A stretch of DNA of 64,000 bases from NCBI GenBank assembly GCA_965116335.1, contig OZ220677.1, positions 1,315,933 through 1,379,932 on the forward strand. The letters run 5' to 3'. The notes beneath the pieces were generated by a model that saw only the letters and a program-made list of their open reading frames with translations, was not told where the DNA came from and made no database searches. The stretch comes from Arenicellales bacterium. GTDB taxonomy: Bacteria > Pseudomonadota > Gammaproteobacteria > Arenicellales > Poriferihabitantaceae. The position numbers and the translations under genes are program-made. Every line of letters begins with the position of its first letter. The first letter of the stretch is position 1. Shown here one piece after another: positions 44,322 to 57,492 of the stretch.

Positions 44322-45887
44322 TCAGGCCGGGATTACTTTCACTGCGGCCAGATTCCGGTCTTTGGCACTGAACGCTATGCCGATCAGATGGATGGGTTGG
44401 TTTTGGCTGCGGTACTTGTCGGCATAACCTTTCTCCTGTATCTGTTCAATCGCCTGTTGTGCCGTATCCTCACTATTGCTGTCTGTATCTGACATCTTGA
44501 ACTCAAATACGAATACCTGATCTCCATGCAATACCACCATATCTGCCCGACCCCGGCTGCTGGAATCCTCTACCCGAAGGGTAAGACCAATCGTACAAAA
44601 GCAGGCATATAACATCCCCGCATACCAGGCTTCATATCGAGCCGGACTCCGGGTGGACTGCCACTGATACGGAATCCCGGCGAAGAATGATTGTAGATGC
44701 TCCGTGAATCCATCGAAGTCATTGGCTACCAGCAGACGCGCCAGTTGATCGCCCTGATCTGCTGTTTCGATTCTGCGTCCTGTGATATAACCGAGCAATC
44801 CATGGTTCAGACTCTGTCGCACCTCGAAGTTCGGATAATCCAGCGTGTAGAGAGTCCGTGCACCATCCCATTCTCGTTCGACAAGGGTTAAGTAGCCGGT
44901 CTGAAACAACAGGGCATCAATGGTGATGTCATCTATATCGAAGGTGGAGAGTAAGTCTTCATCAGAGATACGATTCTCCAGTTCCAGTGGACTGATTTCC
45001 CGATCCATCATGACGCGAAACAGGAAAGTCGGGGAACCGGTCTCAAACCAATGCGACTTGAACTGGCGTTTGCGGAACAACAGCAATAGATCAAATGGAT
45101 TGTACAGTTTCTCTTCTCCGAGCCAGTGATAGCCGTTATACCATTTACGGATTTCATCCCGGTCAAGACCGGGTAACTCCGGGGCGAATACGGTGTCGAG
45201 GTCTTTGTCGGTATAGCCGCAGATCGTAGCAAACTCTGGATCCAGGCTGATATTGTCCAGGTTGTTGAGGCCGGAGAACAAACTCACTTTCGAGAACATA
45301 CTGATGCCGGTGACGAAGACGAAGCGGACATCCCGGGCACTGTCCTTGATGATGCCGTAGAAGCCACGCAGGTAATCCCGGTTGGCTCTGGCCATTTCCG
45401 GGTTATCCAGTACATCCAGAATCGGTTTGTCGTATTCGTCTACCAGAATGACGACCTTTCGCCCGGTCTGTGCATGCAGGCGATTCAGTATGTTTCTCAG
45501 ACGGCGGGGGCCGGTGTGCGACTCAGTGGCTTGAGTAAGTCCGTAACGACGTTCTACACTTTCCAACTGCTCGATAATGTCGCCATCCAGTTCGCCAGGC
45601 TCGTTGTACTTGCCACCAAAGCTCAATCGCACCACGGGATGTTTGACCGACCAATCCCAGTGCGGATGGATATGCAACCCCTGAAACAGGACTTCATTGC
45701 CCTCGAACAGTTCCTGTAATGTATCGATCAGCAGACTCTTGCCGAATCGACGTGGGCGAGACAGGAAATAGAAACTCCCCATTTCGACCAGTCGCTGGAT
45801 ATGAGGGGTCTTATCGACGTAGTAGCAGTCCTGTTCCCGAATGGTACGGAAATCCTGGATACCGATGGGGAGTCTATGGCGAGTCAT
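44322..45887 (-). CDS. AAA-ATPase_like domain + PD-(D/E)XK (PDDEXK_9-like) protein
   Basis: N-terminus LPIGIQDFRTIREQDCYYVDKTPHIQRLVEMGSFYFLSRPRRFGKSLLIDTL is the hallmark of this family. The C-terminus RGRADMVVLHGDQVFVFEFK looks like a nuclease core. Confidence 0.8.
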   Translation of the reverse strand: MTRHRLPIGIQDFRTIREQDCYYVDKTPHIQRLVEMGSFYFLSRPRRFGKSLLIDTLQELFEGNEVLFQGLHIHPHWDWSVKHPVVRLSFGGKYNEPGELDGDIIEQLESVERRYGLTQATESHTGPRRLRNILNRLHAQTGRKVVILVDEYDKPILDVLDNPEMARANRDYLRGFYGIIKDSARDVRFVFVTGISMFSKVSLFSGLNNLDNISLDPEFATICGYTDKDLDTVFAPELPGLDRDEIRKWYNGYHWLGEEKLYNPFDLLLLFRKRQFKSHWFETGSPTFLFRVMMDREISPLELENRISDEDLLSTFDIDDITIDALLFQTGYLTLVEREWDGARTLYTLDYPNFEVRQSLNHGLLGYITGRRIETADQGDQLARLLVANDFDGFTEHLQSFFAGIPYQWQSTRSPARYEAWYAGMLYACFCTIGLTLRVEDSSSRGRADMVVLHGDQVFVFEFKMSDTDSNSEDTAQQAIEQIQEKGYADKYRSQNQPIHLIGIAFSAKDRNLAAVKVIPA

Positions 45888-46035
45888 TATCCATGTTCTT
45901 TGAGGAAGGGTTCAGCCATCATGCCACCCAATGCAGGCGTATGCAAGTACGCTAAGATCAATCTACATGGTAATCATCCCTGCAGCCACACGAACAATGT
46001 ATAATGGAATCACAATCAGACAAGTAATCAGGATT

Positions 46036-46257
46036 ATGGGTAGACAATTCACAGCGATCATTGAAAAAGAAGAAGGCGGATATGTATCGTTATGTCCGCA
46101 GTTGGATATTGCAAGCCAGGGTGATACTGTTGCTCAGGCGAGAATGAATCTCCAGGAAGCATTAGAGCTTTTTTTTGAGACGGCATCTACCGAAGAAATC
46201 ACACAGCGGCTGCATTCGGAAGTCTATATTACCCAAATAGAGGCAGCGGTTGGCTAA
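46036..46257 (+). CDS. hicB: HicB-family antitoxin (short, UPF0150-type)
   Basis: MGRQFTAIIEKEEGGYVSLCPQLDIASQGDTVAQARMNLQEALELFFE matches the HicB N-domain pattern. Confidence 0.8.
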   Translation: MGRQFTAIIEKEEGGYVSLCPQLDIASQGDTVAQARMNLQEALELFFETASTEEITQRLHSEVYITQIEAAVG

Positions 46258-47132: not shown

Positions 47133-47242
47133 GTGGATTCCCGCCTGCGCGGGAAGGACGGGTTGGGGCGGGGGTTGATGGTTGGGTCCCCCCATCACAC
47201 CCGCTTTGCGGGATGTGATTCCCCCTCAAGGGGGGAATGATG
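47133..47242. repeat. REP cluster: module A 47133-47161, module DE 47186-47242
   Basis: Direct reading: hairpins TTCCCGC/GCGGGAA and ATTCCCCC/GGGGGGAAT. Confidence 0.7.
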
Positions 47243-47257
47243 TGATGGTGGGTTGTG

Positions 47258-47566
47258 TCAATCCGTAATTACCGGCCACTGCTCTACCACGCCGGATAAA
47301 TGCCCTATCTGTTGCGTAAGCTGGTTAATTTGCTGGTTGCCCTGATACACAAACCCCAGTATGACCAGTGTCAAAACAAAATGTAATCCGAACATCCAGC
47401 GCAATCCGGCTACATCTCGCTGGACTCCGGCAATGTCAGACTTTGTTGCTAACTGTTCGCCCTGATGCGCGACTGCCTCGGCTACCGCTTCGGCCTGGCT
47501 TGATTCAAACCCGGCTGCTTGCAGTTTTCGTGCTGTCGCCAGTGTGTCGATGGTATACGCTGCCAT
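47258..47566 (-). CDS. DUF1640/CCDC90-like tail-anchored coiled-coil protein, paralog D1 (head N1, tail C1)
   Basis: MAAYTIDTLATARKLQAAGFESSQAEAVAEAV...LATKSDI fits the FDTLxxxxxLxxAGxxxxQAEA...LATKxDL pattern. One C-terminal TM, MFGLHFVLTLVILGFVY. Confidence 0.75.
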   Translation of the reverse strand: MAAYTIDTLATARKLQAAGFESSQAEAVAEAVAHQGEQLATKSDIAGVQRDVAGLRWMFGLHFVLTLVILGFVYQGNQQINQLTQQIGHLSGVVEQWPVITD

Positions 47567-47636
47567 GTCTGTTTCTCCGCTTGTTATTTTATATGTGTCC
47601 TCTGTGGATGGATTCTGCCTGAATCCGTCCGCCCGG

Positions 47637-47800
47637 TCAACGGTAGCGGGCGACCACAGAGGGTCGCCCCTACGATGACTTTACGTGCGGTATCTGAATG
47701 GTTGTGGATTCCCGCCTGCGCGGGAAAGACGGGTTGGGACGAGAAAATCACTCCCCCCTTGAGGGGGAGTCAAATCCGCTTGCGGATTTGGTGGGGGGAC
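47637..47800. repeat. REP cluster: B 47637-47674, A 47704-47732, DE (reverse) 47747-47800
   Basis: Direct reading. The same B-A-DE order recurs at 48711-48874. Confidence 0.75.
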
Positions 47801-51318: not shown

Positions 51319-53766
51319 TTACTCCTTCTCTGCGTGATAAAAGCCTGCGGCTGCGCCGACGACGCTTGGGTCGTCCAGTTCGCCGGCATTGTAAAACAGT
51401 GCTTCGAAATCACCGAAGAAGCCGGTCGGGCGTTGTTCGAAGCGTTGGCCCTGGTCGTTCCCCATCTCGCCGTAAGCTTGCCAGCCCCAACGGCCACTTA
51501 CTGTTTTGCCGCCATCGTAAGTAGCGCCTCTTACGCCATTGGCGCCAATATATCCAGCAGTTCTTTCATCTAAAACAGTTGTAGGGAAAGCGTCCATGGT
51601 TGTCAGAGGGATACTCCATGCAGGATCGACATGACCTTCGCCTGCCACCGCCCTGAAATTGTCAATCGTGCCATTAAGGGTCGGAGTCGTGCCGAAGGTC
51701 GCATTTAGTGTCACGTCCGCCTCGAAGTGGCCGGATGCAGTGGTCATGGCGTCTCCGGCGCCGGTCCTGCGTGCAGACAGGCCGTGTGCATCTCCGCTGT
51801 AGGTGGCGCTGCCAGCAAGGCCACGGTCACTGTCACCAAAGTTCAGGTTGCTCACTGATACGTCTGCTGTCCCAACCCAGCCGATGCGACCCTGGAGCGT
51901 GAGGCTGTTGACGTCGTCGTCAATTCCCTCCAGCCACAAGCCGTAATCGACGTAGTTATCGACTAACTCATAGACACCGTCTCCGTCTGAATCCATATAA
52001 CGGGACATCTCGGTGTTGTAGCCAAGCTCGCCCTGCCGGTCGCTATCCACAACAGGGCTGAAGTAAAAGCCATCACCCAAGTACTTCACCTTCACAACCT
52101 CATTCTCACCCTCACCATTAATAATCGTAATCGTATTCTCATTCAAATCACAGCCACCACTCCGATCACAGTAAAGCGTCCCTGCCATGCCGTTCAGCTG
52201 ACCGTGAAAGAAACCATACTGGCTAACCTGGTTGAGGACACTTATGCCGCCCGCGGGGGCGCCGCCCTCACCGAACGTGCCTTCCGCCCTGACGACGAAA
52301 TCAGACAATTTCGGACGGGTCTGAAAATTGATGGCATAATGATTCTGCGGAAGGCCTGTTTCGGCGTGCTTAGTAGCATTTATCGTATTGTCTGGATTGC
52401 GGAAAGTCCGACGACTGAGCCCCCAGTCATTGTTGTCTTCGGCGATCTGCCTGAACGTCATGGTTCCTTCCGGGGCGGCGCGGAGAAAGACATGGGCACT
52501 GGTATCGAGATCCATGAGGTCGCCGGTGGTGTTGATAACAGGGTCAGAATCAGACCCTCGTATCTGTGCATTTGCTCTTGGCCTATCATAAGCGAGCAAT
52601 GCAAACACCATCTCCGCTTTTTCCTGCTCGCTGACATCGCCCAGCGCGGTCTCCCAACGCGTAATGTCCTTATTAAGGGCAGTCTTGAGATTTTCGAGGG
52701 AGGTTGTGATCTCCTCAACCAACCCACCCTCTCCATTCTCTCCACCAACCACTACCGCTTCAGCCTCCTTAGCCTCCTGATCGCTTCTCTTATCATTCTC
52801 GGCGGTCGTAAGCCGCTCGGCTTCCTCGCTGGCTTCCGCCTCCGCCCGGGTCGCGGCTTCGAACTCCTGCTTCGCCTCTATGTATGCTTCTGCCATCCTT
52901 TTTTCAGCCGCTTCCATCCGATATCTAGCGGCTGCCTCACTCGCAGCCTCAATCTCAATCTCCTTGTCCATAATATCCTGGTTGGTAGCATCAGGGCTTT
53001 GTTGAGGGTCTTTCAACACTGCCAATTCTAACCTAGCATCGGCGGCGTGGGCATCGGACTCAAGAGCATCCTGCTCAAGCTCCATGATTTCCATGTTCAG
53101 AGGATTGTACACTGCCTCTTTCTGACCAAGAGCCTGTACGGCTGTTGCGTACACCGTATTGGCCTCACTCGCTTCTCCAGCAAGACCCTCCGCTTCTTCA
53201 GCAAGACCTGCGGCTTCGGCACCTAAATCACTGTATATCTGCTTGGCAGTCTTAAGATCTTCCTCAACTTTCGCAATCCCGGCCTTCATCGCGTCGACCT
53301 GCGATTGCGCTTCTGCCGTGATGCCCGCGGATACGCCCATGGCAGCGGCGATGACCTGGTTGGATTCCAGATAGATAAGGTTAGCGCCGGTCTCCACTGC
53401 CGCTCTGTTCAATATATCAGGCACCTCTGTTACGGCTTCTTGCGCTTCATCTCTGGCCGTCATTGCATCCTCCACCGGGTCATCACTGGGCGTAACAGGG
53501 TCCGGGGTGTCGCCTCCGCCAGGGCTGGTTGGGCTGGTTCCACCACCACCGCCACCACCGGCCGTGCTTCCATCTCCACTGTCCGTATCGCCGCCTCCGT
53601 TGTCGCCGCCGGTATTGCCGTCCATATTTCCGGTGTTGGGTTGTTCAGGAGCTACCGCTGTGCCTCCCCCACCTCCGCAGGCGGTCAGCAGCAGGCTCAG
53701 GCTCACTGCAACCAGAACGGATACTATCGAATTGATTTTGTTTGTCTCTTGACCCAGATTACTCAT
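51319..53766 (-). CDS. Large lipoprotein with coiled-coil region and C-terminal TbpB/fHbp-like beta-barrel domain (putative surface lipoprotein), paralog L1
   Basis: Lipobox SLSLLLTAC followed by GGGGG. A Gly/Asp/Thr/Pro-rich linker precedes an Ala/Glu-rich helical region. The C-terminus SATYSGDAHG..GHFEADVTLNATF..LNGTIDNF..GFFGDFEALFY..GFYHAE resembles the 8-stranded barrel of transferrin-binding-protein-B-like lipoproteins. Confidence 0.7.
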   Translation of the reverse strand: MSNLGQETNKINSIVSVLVAVSLSLLLTACGGGGGTAVAPEQPNTGNMDGNTGGDNGGGDTDSGDGSTAGGGGGGGTSPTSPGGGDTPDPVTPSDDPVEDAMTARDEAQEAVTEVPDILNRAAVETGANLIYLESNQVIAAAMGVSAGITAEAQSQVDAMKAGIAKVEEDLKTAKQIYSDLGAEAAGLAEEAEGLAGEASEANTVYATAVQALGQKEAVYNPLNMEIMELEQDALESDAHAADARLELAVLKDPQQSPDATNQDIMDKEIEIEAASEAAARYRMEAAEKRMAEAYIEAKQEFEAATRAEAEASEEAERLTTAENDKRSDQEAKEAEAVVVGGENGEGGLVEEITTSLENLKTALNKDITRWETALGDVSEQEKAEMVFALLAYDRPRANAQIRGSDSDPVINTTGDLMDLDTSAHVFLRAAPEGTMTFRQIAEDNNDWGLSRRTFRNPDNTINATKHAETGLPQNHYAINFQTRPKLSDFVVRAEGTFGEGGAPAGGISVLNQVSQYGFFHGQLNGMAGTLYCDRSGGCDLNENTITIINGEGENEVVKVKYLGDGFYFSPVVDSDRQGELGYNTEMSRYMDSDGDGVYELVDNYVDYGLWLEGIDDDVNSLTLQGRIGWVGTADVSVSNLNFGDSDRGLAGSATYSGDAHGLSARRTGAGDAMTTASGHFEADVTLNATFGTTPTLNGTIDNFRAVAGEGHVDPAWSIPLTTMDAFPTTVLDERTAGYIGANGVRGATYDGGKTVSGRWGWQAYGEMGNDQGQRFEQRPTGFFGDFEALFYNAGELDDPSVVGAAAGFYHAEKE

Positions 53767-53910
53767 CTACCCAGACTCCAGATTGTTGGTTGGTTCAGCA
53801 TCAGCGCAGGCGCCAACGCCCGAATTAGCAATATCCAGCGATATTAAACGCAACAATAAACAAAGTCAAACAAAAGAACATCCAATCATTGCCCGGTCTG
53901 CGGCAAGAAA

Positions 53911-54060
53911 ATCACTCCCCCCTTGAGGGGGAGTCAAATCCGCTCACGGATTTGGTGGGGGGAATTGACGAGTGGGGCTGGGGATGATGGTAGCGGGAGG
54001 GCACAAGACCCTCCCCTACGCATCGGTAATTGCGGATTTCGTATGGTTGTGGATTCCTGT
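53911..54060. repeat. REP cluster: DE (reverse) 53911-53963, C 53994-54020, truncated A from 54049
   Basis: Direct reading. Confidence 0.7.
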
Positions 54061-54104: not shown

Positions 54105-54506
54105 CTACTGCCTCGGCCATTGTTCTACTACGCCGGATAAATGTCCTACCTGTTGCGTAAGCTGGGTGATTTGCTGGTTAATTTGCTGGTTGCCTTGATA
54201 CACAAACCCTAATATGACCAGCGTCAAAACAAAATGTAATCCGAACATCCAGCGCAACCCGACTACATCTTGCCGGACTCCTGCCACTTCCCCCCGGACT
54301 CCGGCAATTTCCTGGCGTAGTGATTTTTCCACCGCTTTCAGGTCGGACTGTACCAGTTTCAGGTCGGCCTTTGTTGCCAGGTCGTCTCCATGGCTTCCTA
54401 CTACTTCGGCGACTGTCTCGGCCACCGCCTCAGCCTGGATAGTCTCAAAACCTGCCTTTTCCAACTTCCGCATGGTGGCCAGGGTATCAATCGCTATGGT
54501 TGTCAT
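54105..54506 (-). CDS. DUF1640-like tail-anchored coiled-coil protein, paralog D2 (head N2, tail C1)
   Basis: MTTIAIDTLATMRKLEKAGFETIQAEAVAETVAEVVG...LATKADLKLVQSDLKAVEKSLRQEIAGVRGEVAGVRQDVVGLRW, then a TM segment and YQGNQQINQQITQLTQQVGHLSGVVEQWPRQ. Confidence 0.75.
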   Translation of the reverse strand: MTTIAIDTLATMRKLEKAGFETIQAEAVAETVAEVVGSHGDDLATKADLKLVQSDLKAVEKSLRQEIAGVRGEVAGVRQDVVGLRWMFGLHFVLTLVILGFVYQGNQQINQQITQLTQQVGHLSGVVEQWPRQ

Positions 54507-54561
54507 GATTCTTTCCTGATGTTTATTTGTATTGGTTCCTGTTATTGTTCGCCCTGATACG

Positions 54562-55026
54562 CTATTGCTTCGTCCACTGTTCTACTACGCCGGATAAATG
54601 CCCTACCTGTTGCGTAAGCTGGGTGATTTGCTGGTTAATTTGCTGGTTGCCTTGATACATAAACCCGAATATAACCAGATTCAAAGCAACCACAAACCCG
54701 GCAACAATCCCGAATGTCCAGCGCAATCCGGCTACTTCCCCTCGGACTCCGGCAATTTCCTGGCGTAGTGATTTTTCTACCGCTTTCAGGTCGGACTGTA
54801 CTACTTTCAAGTCGGACTGTACTACTTTCAGGTCAGACTGTACTACTTTCAAGTCGGACTTCACTACTTTCAGGTCGGACTGTACCAGTTTCAGGTCGGC
54901 CTTTGTTGCCAGGTCGTCTCCCTGGCGTCCTACTACTTCGGCCACCGCCTCAGCCTGGACAGTCTCAAACCCTGCCTTTTCCAGCTTCCGCATGGTGGCC
55001 AGGGTATCAATCGCTATGGTTGCCAT
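54562..55026 (-). CDS. DUF1640-like tail-anchored coiled-coil protein, paralog D3 (head N2, expanded heptad array, tail C2)
   Basis: 154 aa. Contains DLKLVQSDLKVVKSDLKVVQSDLKVVQSDLKVVQSDLKAVEK. Tail is TFGIVAGFVVALNLVIFGFMYQGNQQ...EQWTKQ. Confidence 0.75.
   Translation of the reverse strand: MATIAIDTLATMRKLEKAGFETVQAEAVAEVVGRQGDDLATKADLKLVQSDLKVVKSDLKVVQSDLKVVQSDLKVVQSDLKAVEKSLRQEIAGVRGEVAGLRWTFGIVAGFVVALNLVIFGFMYQGNQQINQQITQLTQQVGHLSGVVEQWTKQ
54783..54900. repeat. 21-bp tandem repeat (CTTTCArGTCrGACTGTACTA, 5-6 units) encoding the heptad VVQSDLK inside D3
   Basis: Units at 54783, 54804, 54825, 54846 and 54867, with a partial unit at 54888. The other paralogs carry 0-1 units. Confidence 0.9.
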
Positions 55027-55083
55027 GAGCCTTTCCTGATGTTGATTGGTATTGGTTCGAAGATTACTGCACGGCTTGCTCGG

Positions 55084-55422
55084 TCAACCTGCCGTCAAGA
55101 TGGCCATTATTCCGGCCACTTCCTGTCCGATAGTGAATACCTGCCACGTCAGGGCAGCCATAATCCCCAACATAGCCAGCGTAAAGGCAAAATGTAATCC
55201 GAACATCCAGCGCAATCCGGCAATTTCCTGGCGTAGTGATTTTTCCACCGCTTTCAGGTCGGACTGTACCAGTTTCAGGTCGGCCTTTGTTGCCAGGTCG
55301 TCTCCCTGGCTTCCTACTACTTCGGCGACTGTCTCGGCCACCGCCTCAGCCTGGACAGTCTCAAAACCTGCCTTTTCCAGCTTCCGCATGGTGGCCAGGG
55401 TATCAATCGCTATAGTTGTCAT
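55084..55422 (-). CDS. DUF1640-like tail-anchored coiled-coil protein, paralog D4 (head N2, tail C3)
   Basis: Tail MFGLHFAFTLAMLGIMAALTWQVFTIGQEVAGIMAILTAG. Confidence 0.75.
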   Translation of the reverse strand: MTTIAIDTLATMRKLEKAGFETVQAEAVAETVAEVVGSQGDDLATKADLKLVQSDLKAVEKSLRQEIAGLRWMFGLHFAFTLAMLGIMAALTWQVFTIGQEVAGIMAILTAG

Positions 55423-55479
55423 GATCCTTTCCTGATGTTGGTTGGTATTGGTTCGAAGATTACTGCACGGCTTGCTCGG

Positions 55480-55752
55480 TCAACCTGCCGTCAAGATGGC
55501 CATTATTCCGGCCACTTCCTGTCCGATAGTGAATACCTGCCACGTCAGGGCAGCCATAATCCCCAACATAGCCAGCGTAAAGGCAAAATGTAATCCGAAC
55601 ATCCAGCGCAATCCGGCAATGTCGGACTTTGTTGCTAACTGTTCGCCTTGATGCGCTACTGCCTCGGCTACCGCTTCGGCCTGGCTTGATTCAAACCCGG
55701 CTGCTTGCAGTTTTCGTGCTGTCGCCAGTGTGTCGATGGTATACGCTGCCAT
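55480..55752 (-). CDS. DUF1640-like tail-anchored coiled-coil protein, paralog D5 (head N1, tail C3)
   Basis: Head is identical to D8 and D1. Tail is identical to D4. Confidence 0.75.
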   Translation of the reverse strand: MAAYTIDTLATARKLQAAGFESSQAEAVAEAVAHQGEQLATKSDIAGLRWMFGLHFAFTLAMLGIMAALTWQVFTIGQEVAGIMAILTAG

Positions 55753-55790
55753 GTCTGTTTCTCCGCTTGGTATTTCCTTATGTATCCTCT

Positions 55791-55819
55791 ATGGATGGAT
55801 TGTGCCTGAATCCATCCAT
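55791..55819. repeat. Leader hairpin ATGGATGGATT-N7-AATCCATCCAT specific to N1-type DUF1640 genes (also at 57126-57154; degenerate copy near 47607-47630)
   Basis: 11-bp perfect stem about 37 nt upstream of the D5 start, followed by a truncated REP A module. Confidence 0.6.
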
Positions 55820-55916
55820 CCGGTCAATGATCCGTATGGTTGTGGATTCCTGTCATCGTTCGTTATTTGACGGATTGTGTCAATTCTCCCTGATGCGCTA
55901 CTGCCTCGGCCACTCC

Positions 55917-56243
55917 TCAGCCTGCCGTCAAGATGGCTACATCGCGCCAGATAGCGAACAGAAAGCCCAACATAATCAGCGTAAAGGCAAAATGTAATCC
56001 GAACATCCAGCGCAATCCTGCCACTTCCCCCCGGACTCCGGTAATTTCCCCCCGGACTCCGGCAATTTCCTGGCGTAGTGATTTTTCTACCGCTTTCAGG
56101 TCGGCCTTTGTTGCCAGGTCGTCTCCCTGGCGTCCTACTACTTCGGCGACTGTCTCGGCCACCGCCTCAGCCTGGACAGTCTCAAACCCTGCCTTTTCCA
56201 GCTTCCGCATGGTGGCCAGGGTATCAATCGCTATGGTTGTCAT
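55917..56243 (-). CDS. DUF1640-like tail-anchored coiled-coil protein, paralog D6 (head N2, tail C4)
   Basis: Tail MFGLHFAFTLIMLGFLFAIWRDVAILTAG. The middle has a duplicated GVRGEI/GVRGEV unit. Confidence 0.75.
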   Translation of the reverse strand: MTTIAIDTLATMRKLEKAGFETVQAEAVAETVAEVVGRQGDDLATKADLKAVEKSLRQEIAGVRGEITGVRGEVAGLRWMFGLHFAFTLIMLGFLFAIWRDVAILTAG

Positions 56244-56343
56244 GAGCCTTTCCTGATGTTGATTGGTATTGGTTCCTATTGCGTCAAGGCAAAATGTAAT
56301 CCGGTAATGTCGGACTTCGTCGCTAACTGTTCGCCTTGATGCG

Positions 56344-56694
56344 CTACTGCCTCGGCCATTGCTCTACTACGCCGGATAAATGCCCTACCTGTTGCGTAAG
56401 CTGGGTGATTTGCTGGTTAATTTGCTGGTTGCCTTGATACATAAACCCGAATATGACCAGATTCAAAGCAACCACAAACCCGGCGACAATCCCGAATGTC
56501 CAGCGCAATCCGGCTATTTCCTGGCGTAGTGATTTTTCTACCACTTTCAGGTCGGCCTTTGTTGCCAGGTCGTCTCCCTGGCGTCCTACTACTTCGGCGA
56601 CTGTCTCGGCCACCGCCTCAGCCTGGACAGTCTCAAACCCTGCCTTTTCCAGCTTCCGCATGGTGGCCAGGGTATCAATCGCTATGGTTGTCAT
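56344..56694 (-). CDS. DUF1640-like tail-anchored coiled-coil protein, paralog D7 (head N2, tail C2)
   Basis: Head as in D6, tail as in D3. Confidence 0.75.
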   Translation of the reverse strand: MTTIAIDTLATMRKLEKAGFETVQAEAVAETVAEVVGRQGDDLATKADLKVVEKSLRQEIAGLRWTFGIVAGFVVALNLVIFGFMYQGNQQINQQITQLTQQVGHLSGVVEQWPRQ

Positions 56695-56794
56695 GATCCT
56701 TTCCTGATGTTGGTTGGTATTGGTTCCTATTGCGTCAAGGCAAAATGTAATCCGTCAATGTCGGACTTCGTCGCTAACTGTTCGCCTTGATACG

Positions 56795-57088
56795 CTACTG
56801 CCTCGGCCATTGTTCTACTACGCCGGACAAATGTCCTACCTGTTGCGTAAGATGGGTGATTTGCTGGTTAATTTGCTGGTTGCCTTGATACACAAACGCC
56901 AGTATGACCAGTGTCAAAGCAACGTGTAATCCGAACATCCAGCGCAATCCGGCAATGTCGGACTTTGTTGCTAACTGTTCGCCTTGATGCGCTACTGCCT
57001 CGGCTACCGCTTCGGCCTGGCTTGATTCAAACCCGGCTGCTTGCAGTTTTCGTGCTGTCGCCAGTGTGTCGATGGTATACGCTGCCAT
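56795..57088 (-). CDS. DUF1640-like tail-anchored coiled-coil protein, paralog D8 (head N1, tail C1)
   Basis: Head as in D5 and D1, tail as in D2. Confidence 0.75.
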   Translation of the reverse strand: MAAYTIDTLATARKLQAAGFESSQAEAVAEAVAHQGEQLATKSDIAGLRWMFGLHVALTLVILAFVYQGNQQINQQITHLTQQVGHLSGVVEQWPRQ

Positions 57089-57125
57089 GTCTGTTTCTCC
57101 GCTTGTTATTTCCTTATGTATCCTC

Positions 57126-57469
57126 TATGGATGGATTGTGCCTGAATCCATCCATCCGGTCAATGATCCGTATGGTTGTGGACTCCCGTTTGCGGATTGG
57201 ATTCCCCCTCAAGGGGGGAATGATTTGGATACATGGATCGAAATGATGTTGTAGGGGAGGGTCTCTGTGCCCTCCCGCGAATGATCGAACAGGAATCAAC
57301 GGTAGCGGACAGGCACAGAGGCCTGTCCCTACGATGACAGTAGGTACACCATCCGTATGGTTGTGGATTCCCGCTTGCGCGGGAAAGACGGTTGGGGCGG
57401 GGGGATTACGGTTGTGTCCCCCCATCCAATCCGTTTGCGGATTGGATTCCCCCTCAAGGGGGGAATGAT
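57126..57469. repeat. REP cluster: N1 leader hairpin 57126-57154, A/E hybrid + D about 57177-57225, C (reverse) 57250-57276, B variant 57295-57332, A 57362-57390, DE 57415-57469
   Basis: Direct reading. The B variant has stem GGACAGGC/GCCTGTCC. Confidence 0.7.
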
Positions 57470-57492
57470 TTGATGATGGTTGTGGATTGCGG

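Follow-up and report, generated by a model that had tools for sequence, protein, structure and literature searches.

Mosaic gene families that arise by intragenic recombination and repeat slippage include the opa genes of Neisseria and the genes for the streptococcal M-like and alpha-C proteins, in which modules are exchanged at conserved junctions and in-frame repeats vary in number between strains; their products are exposed antigens under diversifying selection. The Bdr proteins of Borrelia, encoded on cp32 and linear plasmids, are built from an N-terminal domain with a ..G-F-S-E-E.. motif, variable short repeats and a hydrophobic C-terminal anchor; a genome carries many paralogs, whose repeat numbers vary from strain to strain and whose alleles are reshuffled by homologous recombination, and no function has been assigned to them. 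The DUF1640/CCDC90-like proteins (PF07798; human CCDC90B and MCUR1, yeast Fmp32; PDB 6h9m and 6h9l) combine a head carrying the motif D-T-L..L...G-F...Q-A-E-A with an A-T-K-x-D beta-layer neck, a coiled-coil stalk and a C-terminal membrane helix. According to Hartmann et al. (2016; PMC4786415), DUF1640 proteins are integral membrane proteins of prokaryotes and organelles whose C-terminal stalk starts with [aliphatic]-A-T-K-[polar]-[D/E]; the same neck motif, head-neck-stalk-anchor logic and variable number of short repeats occur in Tcar0761/DUF3782 and in the stalks of trimeric autotransporter adhesins (PMC4786415). The present work concerns a 64-kb stretch of contig OZ220677.1 (hereafter, the window), from a probable sponge-associated gammaproteobacterium, which carries an array of DUF1640-like genes. 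Their products, of 90–154 amino acids (aa), share the head motif, neck, stalk and membrane helix given above for the DUF1640/CCDC90-like proteins, and are assembled from two head types, a stalk of 2–55 residues and four anchor types. The locus is probably a lineage-specific tandem expansion of this family that has become mosaic by ordinary recombination, without dedicated machinery.

Listing and translation of the open reading frames (ORFs) showed the array to consist of seven co-oriented minus-strand genes at 54105–57088, with an eighth copy at 47258–47566:

D8, 57088–56795, minus strand: 97 aa, N1 head, 2-residue stalk, C1 anchor; first gene of unit A
D7, 56694–56344, minus strand: 116 aa, N2 head, 13-residue stalk, C2 anchor
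D6, 56243–55917, minus strand: 108 aa, N2 head, 27-residue stalk with 2 GVRGE units, C4 anchor; last gene of unit A
D5, 55752–55480, minus strand: 90 aa, N1 head, 2-residue stalk, C3 anchor; first gene of unit B
D4, 55422–55084, minus strand: 112 aa, N2 head, 20-residue stalk, C3 anchor
D3, 55026–54562, minus strand: 154 aa, N2 head without AETV, 55-residue stalk, C2 anchor
D2, 54506–54105, minus strand: 133 aa, N2 head, 34-residue stalk, C1 anchor; last gene of unit B
D1, 47566–47258, minus strand: 102 aa, solitary N1 copy, 9-residue stalk, C1 sub-variant ending PVITD

All eight paralogs had been listed at these positions in a prediction made beforehand from the DNA letters (the original prediction), and each is a complete ORF with an ATG, its own Shine-Dalgarno sequence and a stop. 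When the eight proteins were used as tblastn queries, no further full copies were found in the 64-kb window; at least five more are present elsewhere in the source genome, outside the window. An exact-sequence look-up of D3 and D2 returned no matching record. On the plus strand, antisense ORFs of 84–129 aa (54214–56707) face every DUF1640 gene and repeat with the array; these seem to be side products of the repetition and composition of the sequence.

Protein alignment separated the heads into N1 (D1, D5 and D8) and N2 (D2, D3, D4, D6 and D7), two types with ∼63% DNA identity between them and 92–100% within one type. In all eight proteins an invariant L-A-T-K-[A/S]-D is followed by a variable middle and then by an invariant G-L-R-W. 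The residues between ATKxD and GLRW were taken as the stalk, which rises from 2 residues in D8 and D5, practically stalkless proteins, through 9 (D1), 13 (D7), 20 (D4), 27 (D6) and 34 (D2) to 55 (D3). DNA identity matrices returned four tail types, C1–C4, in the combinations N1C1 (D1, D8), N2C1 (D2), N2C2 (D3, D7), N2C3 (D4), N1C3 (D5) and N2C4 (D6). The two head sequences, the four tails and their combinations were all as given in the original prediction, save that the D3 head is missing four codons (AETV). The D1 tail is a C1 sub-variant with 82–83% DNA identity, one QQIT unit fewer and the ending PVITD. The predicted variable central blocks of VVQSDLK and GVRGEV units were also present; VQSDLK units number five in D3, one each in D2 and D4 and zero in the remaining genes, while GVRGEV-type units number two each in D2 and D6 and one each in D1 and D3. 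Tandem Repeats Finder reported gene-sized periods of 396 and 451 bp, ∼2 copies of a 21-bp repeat in D2 and D6, and a longer tract of such repeats in D3:

54783–54899, minus strand: tract of 5.6 tandem 21-bp copies within D3, coding for LK-V-V-Q/K-S-D heptads

The heptad register was set by placing the residue after ATKxD at position a, following the solved beta-layers. The VQSDLK unit then reads L(a)-K-V-V(d)-Q-S-D and the GVRGEV unit V(a)-A-G-V(d)-R-G-E, and the heptad pattern can be followed in the stalk, with L, I or V at a and V or L at d. The LK-x-VEKSLRQEIA block corresponds to a heptad plus a four-residue stutter. Read in this way, the modules are whole heptads save for one fixed 11-residue element, and the Leu of GLRW stays at d; because the modules are heptad-sized, recombinants should keep the coiled-coil register and remain functional.

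The PF07798 profile (CCDC90-like, formerly DUF1640; gathering score 33.5 bits) matched all eight proteins, D2 and D6 with 38.9 and 38.6 bits, and it is the precomputed Pfam assignment of many relatives. When a profile of 38 relatives was run against the PDB, the best match was 6h9m, the CCDC90B head fused to GCN4 (E = 2.7e-4), in an alignment beginning at the D-T-L motif; the Tcar0761 beta-layer construct 5apz (E = 6e-3) and 6h9l (E = 0.015) were also found. The membership in a DUF1640-like family that had been proposed is borne out by the scores of D2 and D6 and by the finding of CCDC90B. The beta-layer motif is present at the start of the stalk in all eight proteins, as LATKAD or LATKSD. In the AlphaFold (AF2) model of D2 (mean predicted local distance difference test score, pLDDT, of 80), helices at residues 8–17 and 22–41 are separated by a break at 42–44, falling exactly on L-A-T, from a helix at 45–128. 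Each protein has one hydrophobic 19-residue Kyte-Doolittle window (1.9–2.4) near its C-terminus, with Lys and Arg confined to the N-terminal side of it, and no N-terminal signal-like segment was found in any of the eight. Together, these features argue for tail-anchored inner-membrane proteins with head and stalk in the cytoplasm; the Gln-rich segment of ∼30 aa in C1 and C2 would then be periplasmic. The proteins are probably trimeric like their solved relatives, a view drawn from the PDB entries and from PMC4786415.

Compared with the described DUF1640/CCDC90-like proteins, those of the window are much shorter (90–154 aa against a Pfam profile of 175 positions), and they are encoded in a recombining tandem array with alternative anchors, some of which bear a Gln-rich post-membrane extension. 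The mitochondrial roles of the CCDC90-like relatives are not transferable to the bacterial proteins. Tcar0761 and the adhesins use nonad or hexad repeats, and the adhesins form surface fibres, whereas the window proteins have plain heptads plus the one 11-residue element and would face the cytoplasm. The closest described parallel, as an analogy, is the bdr genes. The protein plan is the same, and the Bdr repeat VEKNLQKDISN can be set beside VEKSLRQEIAG of the window; Bdr genes, however, are dispersed on plasmids and prophages, while the window genes form a chromosomal tandem array. Homology to Bdr was not supported. Pairwise BLASTP gave E = 0.035; the cp32-1 Bdr matched NF040500 (Bdr N-terminal) and the KID repeat PF02524 but not PF07798, and the window proteins matched neither Bdr model. 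Unlike the opa, M-like and alpha-C antigens, the window proteins are probably mostly intracellular, and their genes show purifying selection.

Recombination was examined with Mantel tests of head against tail distances, run once on the eight genes of the window and once on 17 genes of three genomes (the window and two relatives, L001 and L015). L001 is a 2.7-Mb contig that also encodes the exact D5 protein; its flanks are 95–99.5% identical to those of the window, yet its array is rearranged and has six genes. L015, a sponge-metagenome contig (IrcVar142, taken to stand for Ircinia variabilis; Joint Genome Institute metagenome 3300003251), has three genes with quite different neighbours. The genes of these relatives are:

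E1, L001: N1 head, stalk 2, C2; head of D8 and tail of D7, fused at the AGLRW box
E2, L001: N2 head, stalk 27, C4
E3, L001: N1 head, stalk 9, C3
E4, L001: N2 head, stalk 62, C2; D3 counterpart, with six VQSDLK units against five
E5, L001: N1 head, stalk 2, C3
E6, L001: N2 head, stalk 34, C2
F1, L015: N1 head, stalk 2, C3
F2, L015: N1 head, stalk 16, C2
F3, L015: N2 head, stalk 27, C1

Head and tail distances were uncorrelated (r = -0.19 for the eight window genes and 0.02 for the 17 genes), and seven of the eight possible head-by-tail combinations were seen across the three genomes. Since the head types differ by ∼50 linked differences, their free assortment requires exchange between paralogs, just as had been argued from the window alone. 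The breakpoints are sharp and lie in two short conserved boxes, one at the ATKxD codons and the other at the AGLRW codons (the latter being ATTGCCGGATTGCGCTGGA, ∼20 nt). Gene D4, for instance, tracks the N2 genes until ATTGCCGGATTGCGCTGGA and is thereafter 100% identical to D5, past the stop. Stalk length varies by whole 21-bp (heptad) units. An array identical in all related genomes had been put forward as the observation that would count against shuffling; L001 and L015 carry the same modules in other combinations and with other repeat numbers, and as the arrays differ between close relatives this objection fails.

More distant relatives were found in metagenome-assembled genomes (MAGs) of Arenicellales and Ca. 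Poriferihabitaceae, with 5–8 loci each; in one locus, five copies lie within ∼4 kb, interspersed with other genes. These MAGs provide further heads, anchors and combinations, including mosaics of transmembrane type and post-transmembrane type. A metagenome scan gave, among the matches listed, one unrelated short contig. In a Ca. Poriferihabitaceae MAG (L004, 6281–6610, minus strand) a 109-aa protein was noted with an N-terminal membrane helix and three EIGGLRQQMNQ repeats followed by QQINQIAQQVGHLSG, the motif seen in the window in the post-membrane C1/C2 tail. As the motif occurs here on a protein of another kind, the Gln-rich tail may be a module in its own right.

Traces of other rearrangements were found in the spacers of unit A, where tblastn detected two fragments of N1 genes, each of 90 nt:

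56733–56822, minus strand: N1 fragment 1, behind the D8 stop in the D8–D7 spacer, out of frame (AEAVAYQGEQLATKSDIDGLHFALTQ)
56282–56371, minus strand: N1 fragment 2, behind the D7 stop in the D7–D6 spacer, out of frame
56695–56794, minus strand: D8–D7 spacer, with the N1 fragment and then the internal leader AACCAATACCAACCAACATCAGGAAAG
56244–56343, minus strand: D7–D6 spacer, with the second N1 fragment and then an internal leader

The last codons of C1 and C2, together with their TAG stop (PRQ-stop), are N1-head DNA (GCC GAG GCA GTA GCG) read in another frame; the TAG derives from the N1 A-V-A codons, and the truncated N1 remainder then follows. This PRQ-stop ending is the footprint of an older illegitimate event. 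D1 and its relative F3 retain the alternative ending PVITD.

The arrangement of the leaders suggests three transcription units, [D8-D7-D6], [D5-D4-D3-D2] and [D1]. Three upstream elements were recognised:

57122–57163, minus strand: D8 upstream element, a TTGACC-17-CACAAT promoter-like site overlapping an 11-bp inverted repeat (ATGGATGGATT/AATCCATCCAT)
55786–55827, minus strand: D5 upstream element, promoter-like site and inverted repeat identical to those of D8
47599–47640, minus strand: D1 upstream element, a diverged copy with core GGATTCAGGCAGAATCC at 47610–47626

The promoter-like sites of D8 and D5 lie at 57163–57135 and 55827–55799, respectively. The inverted repeat could fold into a hairpin whose 11-bp stem closes a 7-nt loop (-17.1 kcal/mol, z = -3.4). 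In the window, copies of its core, GGATTCAGGCANAATCC, are confined to the DNA upstream of D1, D5 and D8, and in the relatives to that upstream of E1, E3 and E5 (L001) and F1 (L015); the core precedes unit-first genes only (three in the window, three in L001 and one in L015), and all seven units in the three genomes begin with a short-stalk N1 gene. In the window the internal leader CAACATCAGGAAAG precedes D2, D3, D4, D6 and D7 and no other gene, and internal genes have short spacers with an AGGAAAG ribosome-binding site. The unit-last genes D6 and D2 have the same 3′ flank. The original prediction had claimed that leader type co-varies with head type. The distribution it described is correct, with the hairpin at D1, D5 and D8 only and CAACATCAGGAAAG at the other five only, but the link is a positional one; F2 of L015 has an N1 head behind an N2-type internal leader, so leader type marks position rather than head type. 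The 11-bp inverted repeat is a candidate DNA-level operator, favoured over an RNA element because the -10 hexamer sits inside the repeat. The hairpin was judged less likely to act as an RNA element; if the promoter is real, transcription would start at the end of the 3′ arm.

On the reading favoured here, that of a tandem expansion made mosaic by ordinary recombination, comparison of the sequences shows that the paralogs exchange DNA by homologous recombination (unequal crossing-over and gene conversion), with crossovers at the ATKxD codons and at the ∼20-nt AGLRW box, and that the 21-bp repeats expand and contract, which fits slippage. The ratio of non-synonymous to synonymous change (pN/pS) was 0.08–0.19 (∼0.1) in the five module types for which it could be computed, indicating purifying selection.

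Several observations weigh against this reading or parts of it. Junction boxes of ∼15–20 nt offer little length for RecA-dependent exchange, so part of the events may have relied on partial homology in the flanks or on a different route. Three related genomes are insufficient to obtain a rearrangement rate, and variation inside one population is possible. Six of the eight proteins score 17.9–28.6 bits, under the PF07798 gathering score, these six being evident paralogs of D2 and D6. Foldseek with the AF2 monomer returned nothing below E = 2.6 from the PDB, which was expected because the model is essentially a single long helix. The promoter-like sites match only weakly, at 9 of 12 positions, and their number in the region (five) is not above expectation (shuffled mean, 3.1). 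Finally, trimerisation, topology and expression are inferred.

A different explanation, which we regard as unlikely, is that the proteins derive from mobile elements and act in exclusion or defence (e.g. superinfection or entry exclusion at the inner membrane), their variety being maintained by conflict with phages and plasmids. Two phage families to which no function is assigned, phrog_17872 (E = 4e-12) and phrog_9415, matched the proteins. In Bordetella avium phages, a single homologue of the same architecture is surrounded by antirepressor and other early-region genes, with the repressor gene ∼3.4 kb away, and the homologue in APSE-7, a phage of an aphid symbiont, adjoins a putative transcriptional regulator; these phage proteins (L021 3501–3887 and L022 3501–3866; Bordetella avium phages, APSE-7) combine a head and an ATKxD neck with 11-residue repeats and, at the C-terminus, a membrane helix. 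We take such positions to resemble those of lysogenic-conversion or exclusion genes. For other relatives the contig looks like a plasmid or conjugative element, encoding a relaxase and Rep3 in one case and ArdC in another, and the array itself is located in a variable region rich in paralogs and in repetitive extragenic palindromic (REP)-like sequences. The C2 tails of D3 and D7 scored 24.4 and 23.6 bits against Pfam MbeD_MobD (PF04899; cut-off 21.6), and the name of NCBIfam NF033829 is mobilization/exclusion protein. However, the MbeD match covers profile positions 36–70 only (the Gln-rich half), and NF033829 scored 17–19 bits against a cut-off of 60; membership in MbeD/MobD was rejected, the full-length curated cut-off not being reached. 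In addition, PADLOC returned no match to the DUF1640 proteins, a tblastn search of the PLSDB plasmids was blank, and the residues show no sign of positive selection. No conserved partner gene was detected, tblastn with six neighbouring window proteins against loci L002–L014 being blank, and the context is chromosomal, between lipoprotein genes and moaA.

It is also conceivable, though we consider it rather improbable, that the units are co-expressed ‘height ladders’ that hold heads at quantised distances from the inner membrane, shuffling being selected to retune height and anchor. The stalks form the set 2, 9, 13, 20, 27, 34 and 55 residues in the window, and reach 62 in a relative. Were this the case, each unit would consist of one stalk-less N1 protein and one to three N2 proteins under operator control, with steps of one heptad, ∼1 nm each, spanning ∼0.3–9 nm, and it could block or sense the entry of DNA or protein at the membrane, as the single-copy phage relatives might in superinfection exclusion.

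The original prediction had favoured a cassette-type diversification system. Taken as a programmed mechanism, this would be a contingency locus with phase variation, in which modules are actively shuffled at high frequency so as to vary an expressed protein. The free assortment of the modules, the differences between arrays whose flanks are ∼95% identical, the concentration of breakpoints on two boxes and the change from five to six copies of the 21-bp tract between genomes would all fit such a system. We nevertheless consider it very unlikely. Every copy is intact, with a start codon and a ribosome-binding site, and pN/pS is ∼0.1. There is no division into an expression site and silent cassettes; no silent truncated cassettes feeding a single expression site were found, the only fragments being the two 90-nt N1 remnants. 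As all the genes point the same way, exchange is limited to duplication, deletion or conversion. Among the profile-scanned ORFs of 44.3–61 kb, neither a recombinase nor a reverse transcriptase was found. No inversion sites were found, and the long inverted repeats are generic REP-like palindromes that are present elsewhere in the window too. None of the defining features of shufflons or invertase systems, of retroelements or of cassette variation was seen. In the analogous bdr genes of Borrelia, repeat numbers are strain-specific and one locus was reported to be stable in culture (PMC3303823). The claim of a diversification system was therefore not sustained, and the locus is better described as a recombining paralog family than as a demonstrated cassette system. 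That the mosaic is an assembly artefact, made by chimeric joining of near-identical repeats from co-occurring strains, is scarcely credible: although the window and its relatives are metagenome assemblies with repeats of 300–450 bp that are up to 100% identical, three independent assemblies share the module types and the junction boxes, the contigs of the two large relatives reach 2.7 and 3.0 Mb, all ORFs are intact and in frame, and heads and tails are mixed in the same mosaic fashion across the wider family in other MAGs.

Taken as a family expansion shaped by ordinary recombination, the locus reveals no new diversification mechanism; the processes are ordinary ones. It is a record of rapid structural change in a REP-rich part of the genomes of sponge symbionts. 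An exhaustive profile search returned 8282 cluster representatives (E ≤ 1e-3), and most of the best 150 of these were ∼80–190 aa long; the family is thus large and its length commonly variable. Bacterial DUF1640 being a very large family without known function, the array offers a natural in-register series of heads, stalks and anchors, useful for questions of stalk length and anchor type and for the study of beta-layer coiled coils.

The array is bounded by REP-like sequences and flanked by two further groups of paralogs:

53909–53963: REP-like palindromic element, array boundary downstream of D2, with a terminator-like hairpin at 53914–53934 (minus strand)
57186–57471: REP-like palindromic cluster, array boundary upstream of D8
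51319–53766, minus strand: lipoprotein gene flanking the array, 815 aa
57493–59643, minus strand: paralogous lipoprotein gene flanking the array, 716 aa
46376–47026, minus strand: Hjc-like nuclease paralog, 216 aa
47824–48825, minus strand: Hjc-like nuclease paralog, 333 aa
48898–49860, minus strand: Hjc-like nuclease paralog, 320 aa
50163–51257, minus strand: Hjc-like nuclease paralog, 364 aa

Composite palindromic intergenic elements are dense between 44267 and 59879 and include TCCCCCCTTGAGGGGGA, AATCCGCAAACGGATT, TTCCCGCGCAAGCGGGAA and GGAATCCACAACCATWCRGAT; examples lie at 47220, 47752, 48826, 49883, 50091, 51161, 53916, 57203, 57448 and 59863. Ten of the 12 window copies of TCCCCCCTTGAGGGGGA fall between 44 and 60 kb, and two of these motifs, with twelve and eleven window copies, occur nearly exclusively in that interval. 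The palindromes give rise to spurious ORFs, such as one reading ...FPAQAGIHNH....

Both lipoproteins have the lipobox LLLTAC-GGGG, a Gly/Asp-rich linker, a long Ala/Glu coiled coil and a conserved C-terminal domain. They gave no significant Pfam family, and nothing in the PDB matched the C-terminal sequence of the 815-aa protein. Their window and L001 versions are only 72–83% identical, against 95% for the flanks; the L001 counterpart of the 716-aa protein is called as two genes (434 and 283 aa).

D1 has the Hjc-like nuclease paralogs as neighbours and sits between the first two of their genes; L001 has only two such genes. Each of the four proteins has a PD-(D/E)XK Hjc-like domain and an N-terminal coiled coil of differing length, in which 33-bp and 21-bp repeats are found, and the 5′ parts of the longer ORFs extend into REP-like sequence. 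Variation of coiled-coil length among tandem paralogs is thus a theme that they share with the DUF1640 array. Their family type, that of DUF3782-like endonucleases, has been linked to DUF1640 through the beta-layer motif (PMC4786415); no ATKxD motif was seen in the nuclease paralogs. PADLOC returned weak matches of these proteins to the nuclease part of CARF_PDDEXK/Csx1. At the edge of the paralog-rich region, a gene at 44322–45887 (minus strand) encodes a 521-aa protein with predicted AAA-ATPase and PDDEXK_9 domains, and beside it lies a small ORF (45931–46257, plus strand) with a faint UPF0150/HicB resemblance; both are conserved in L001.

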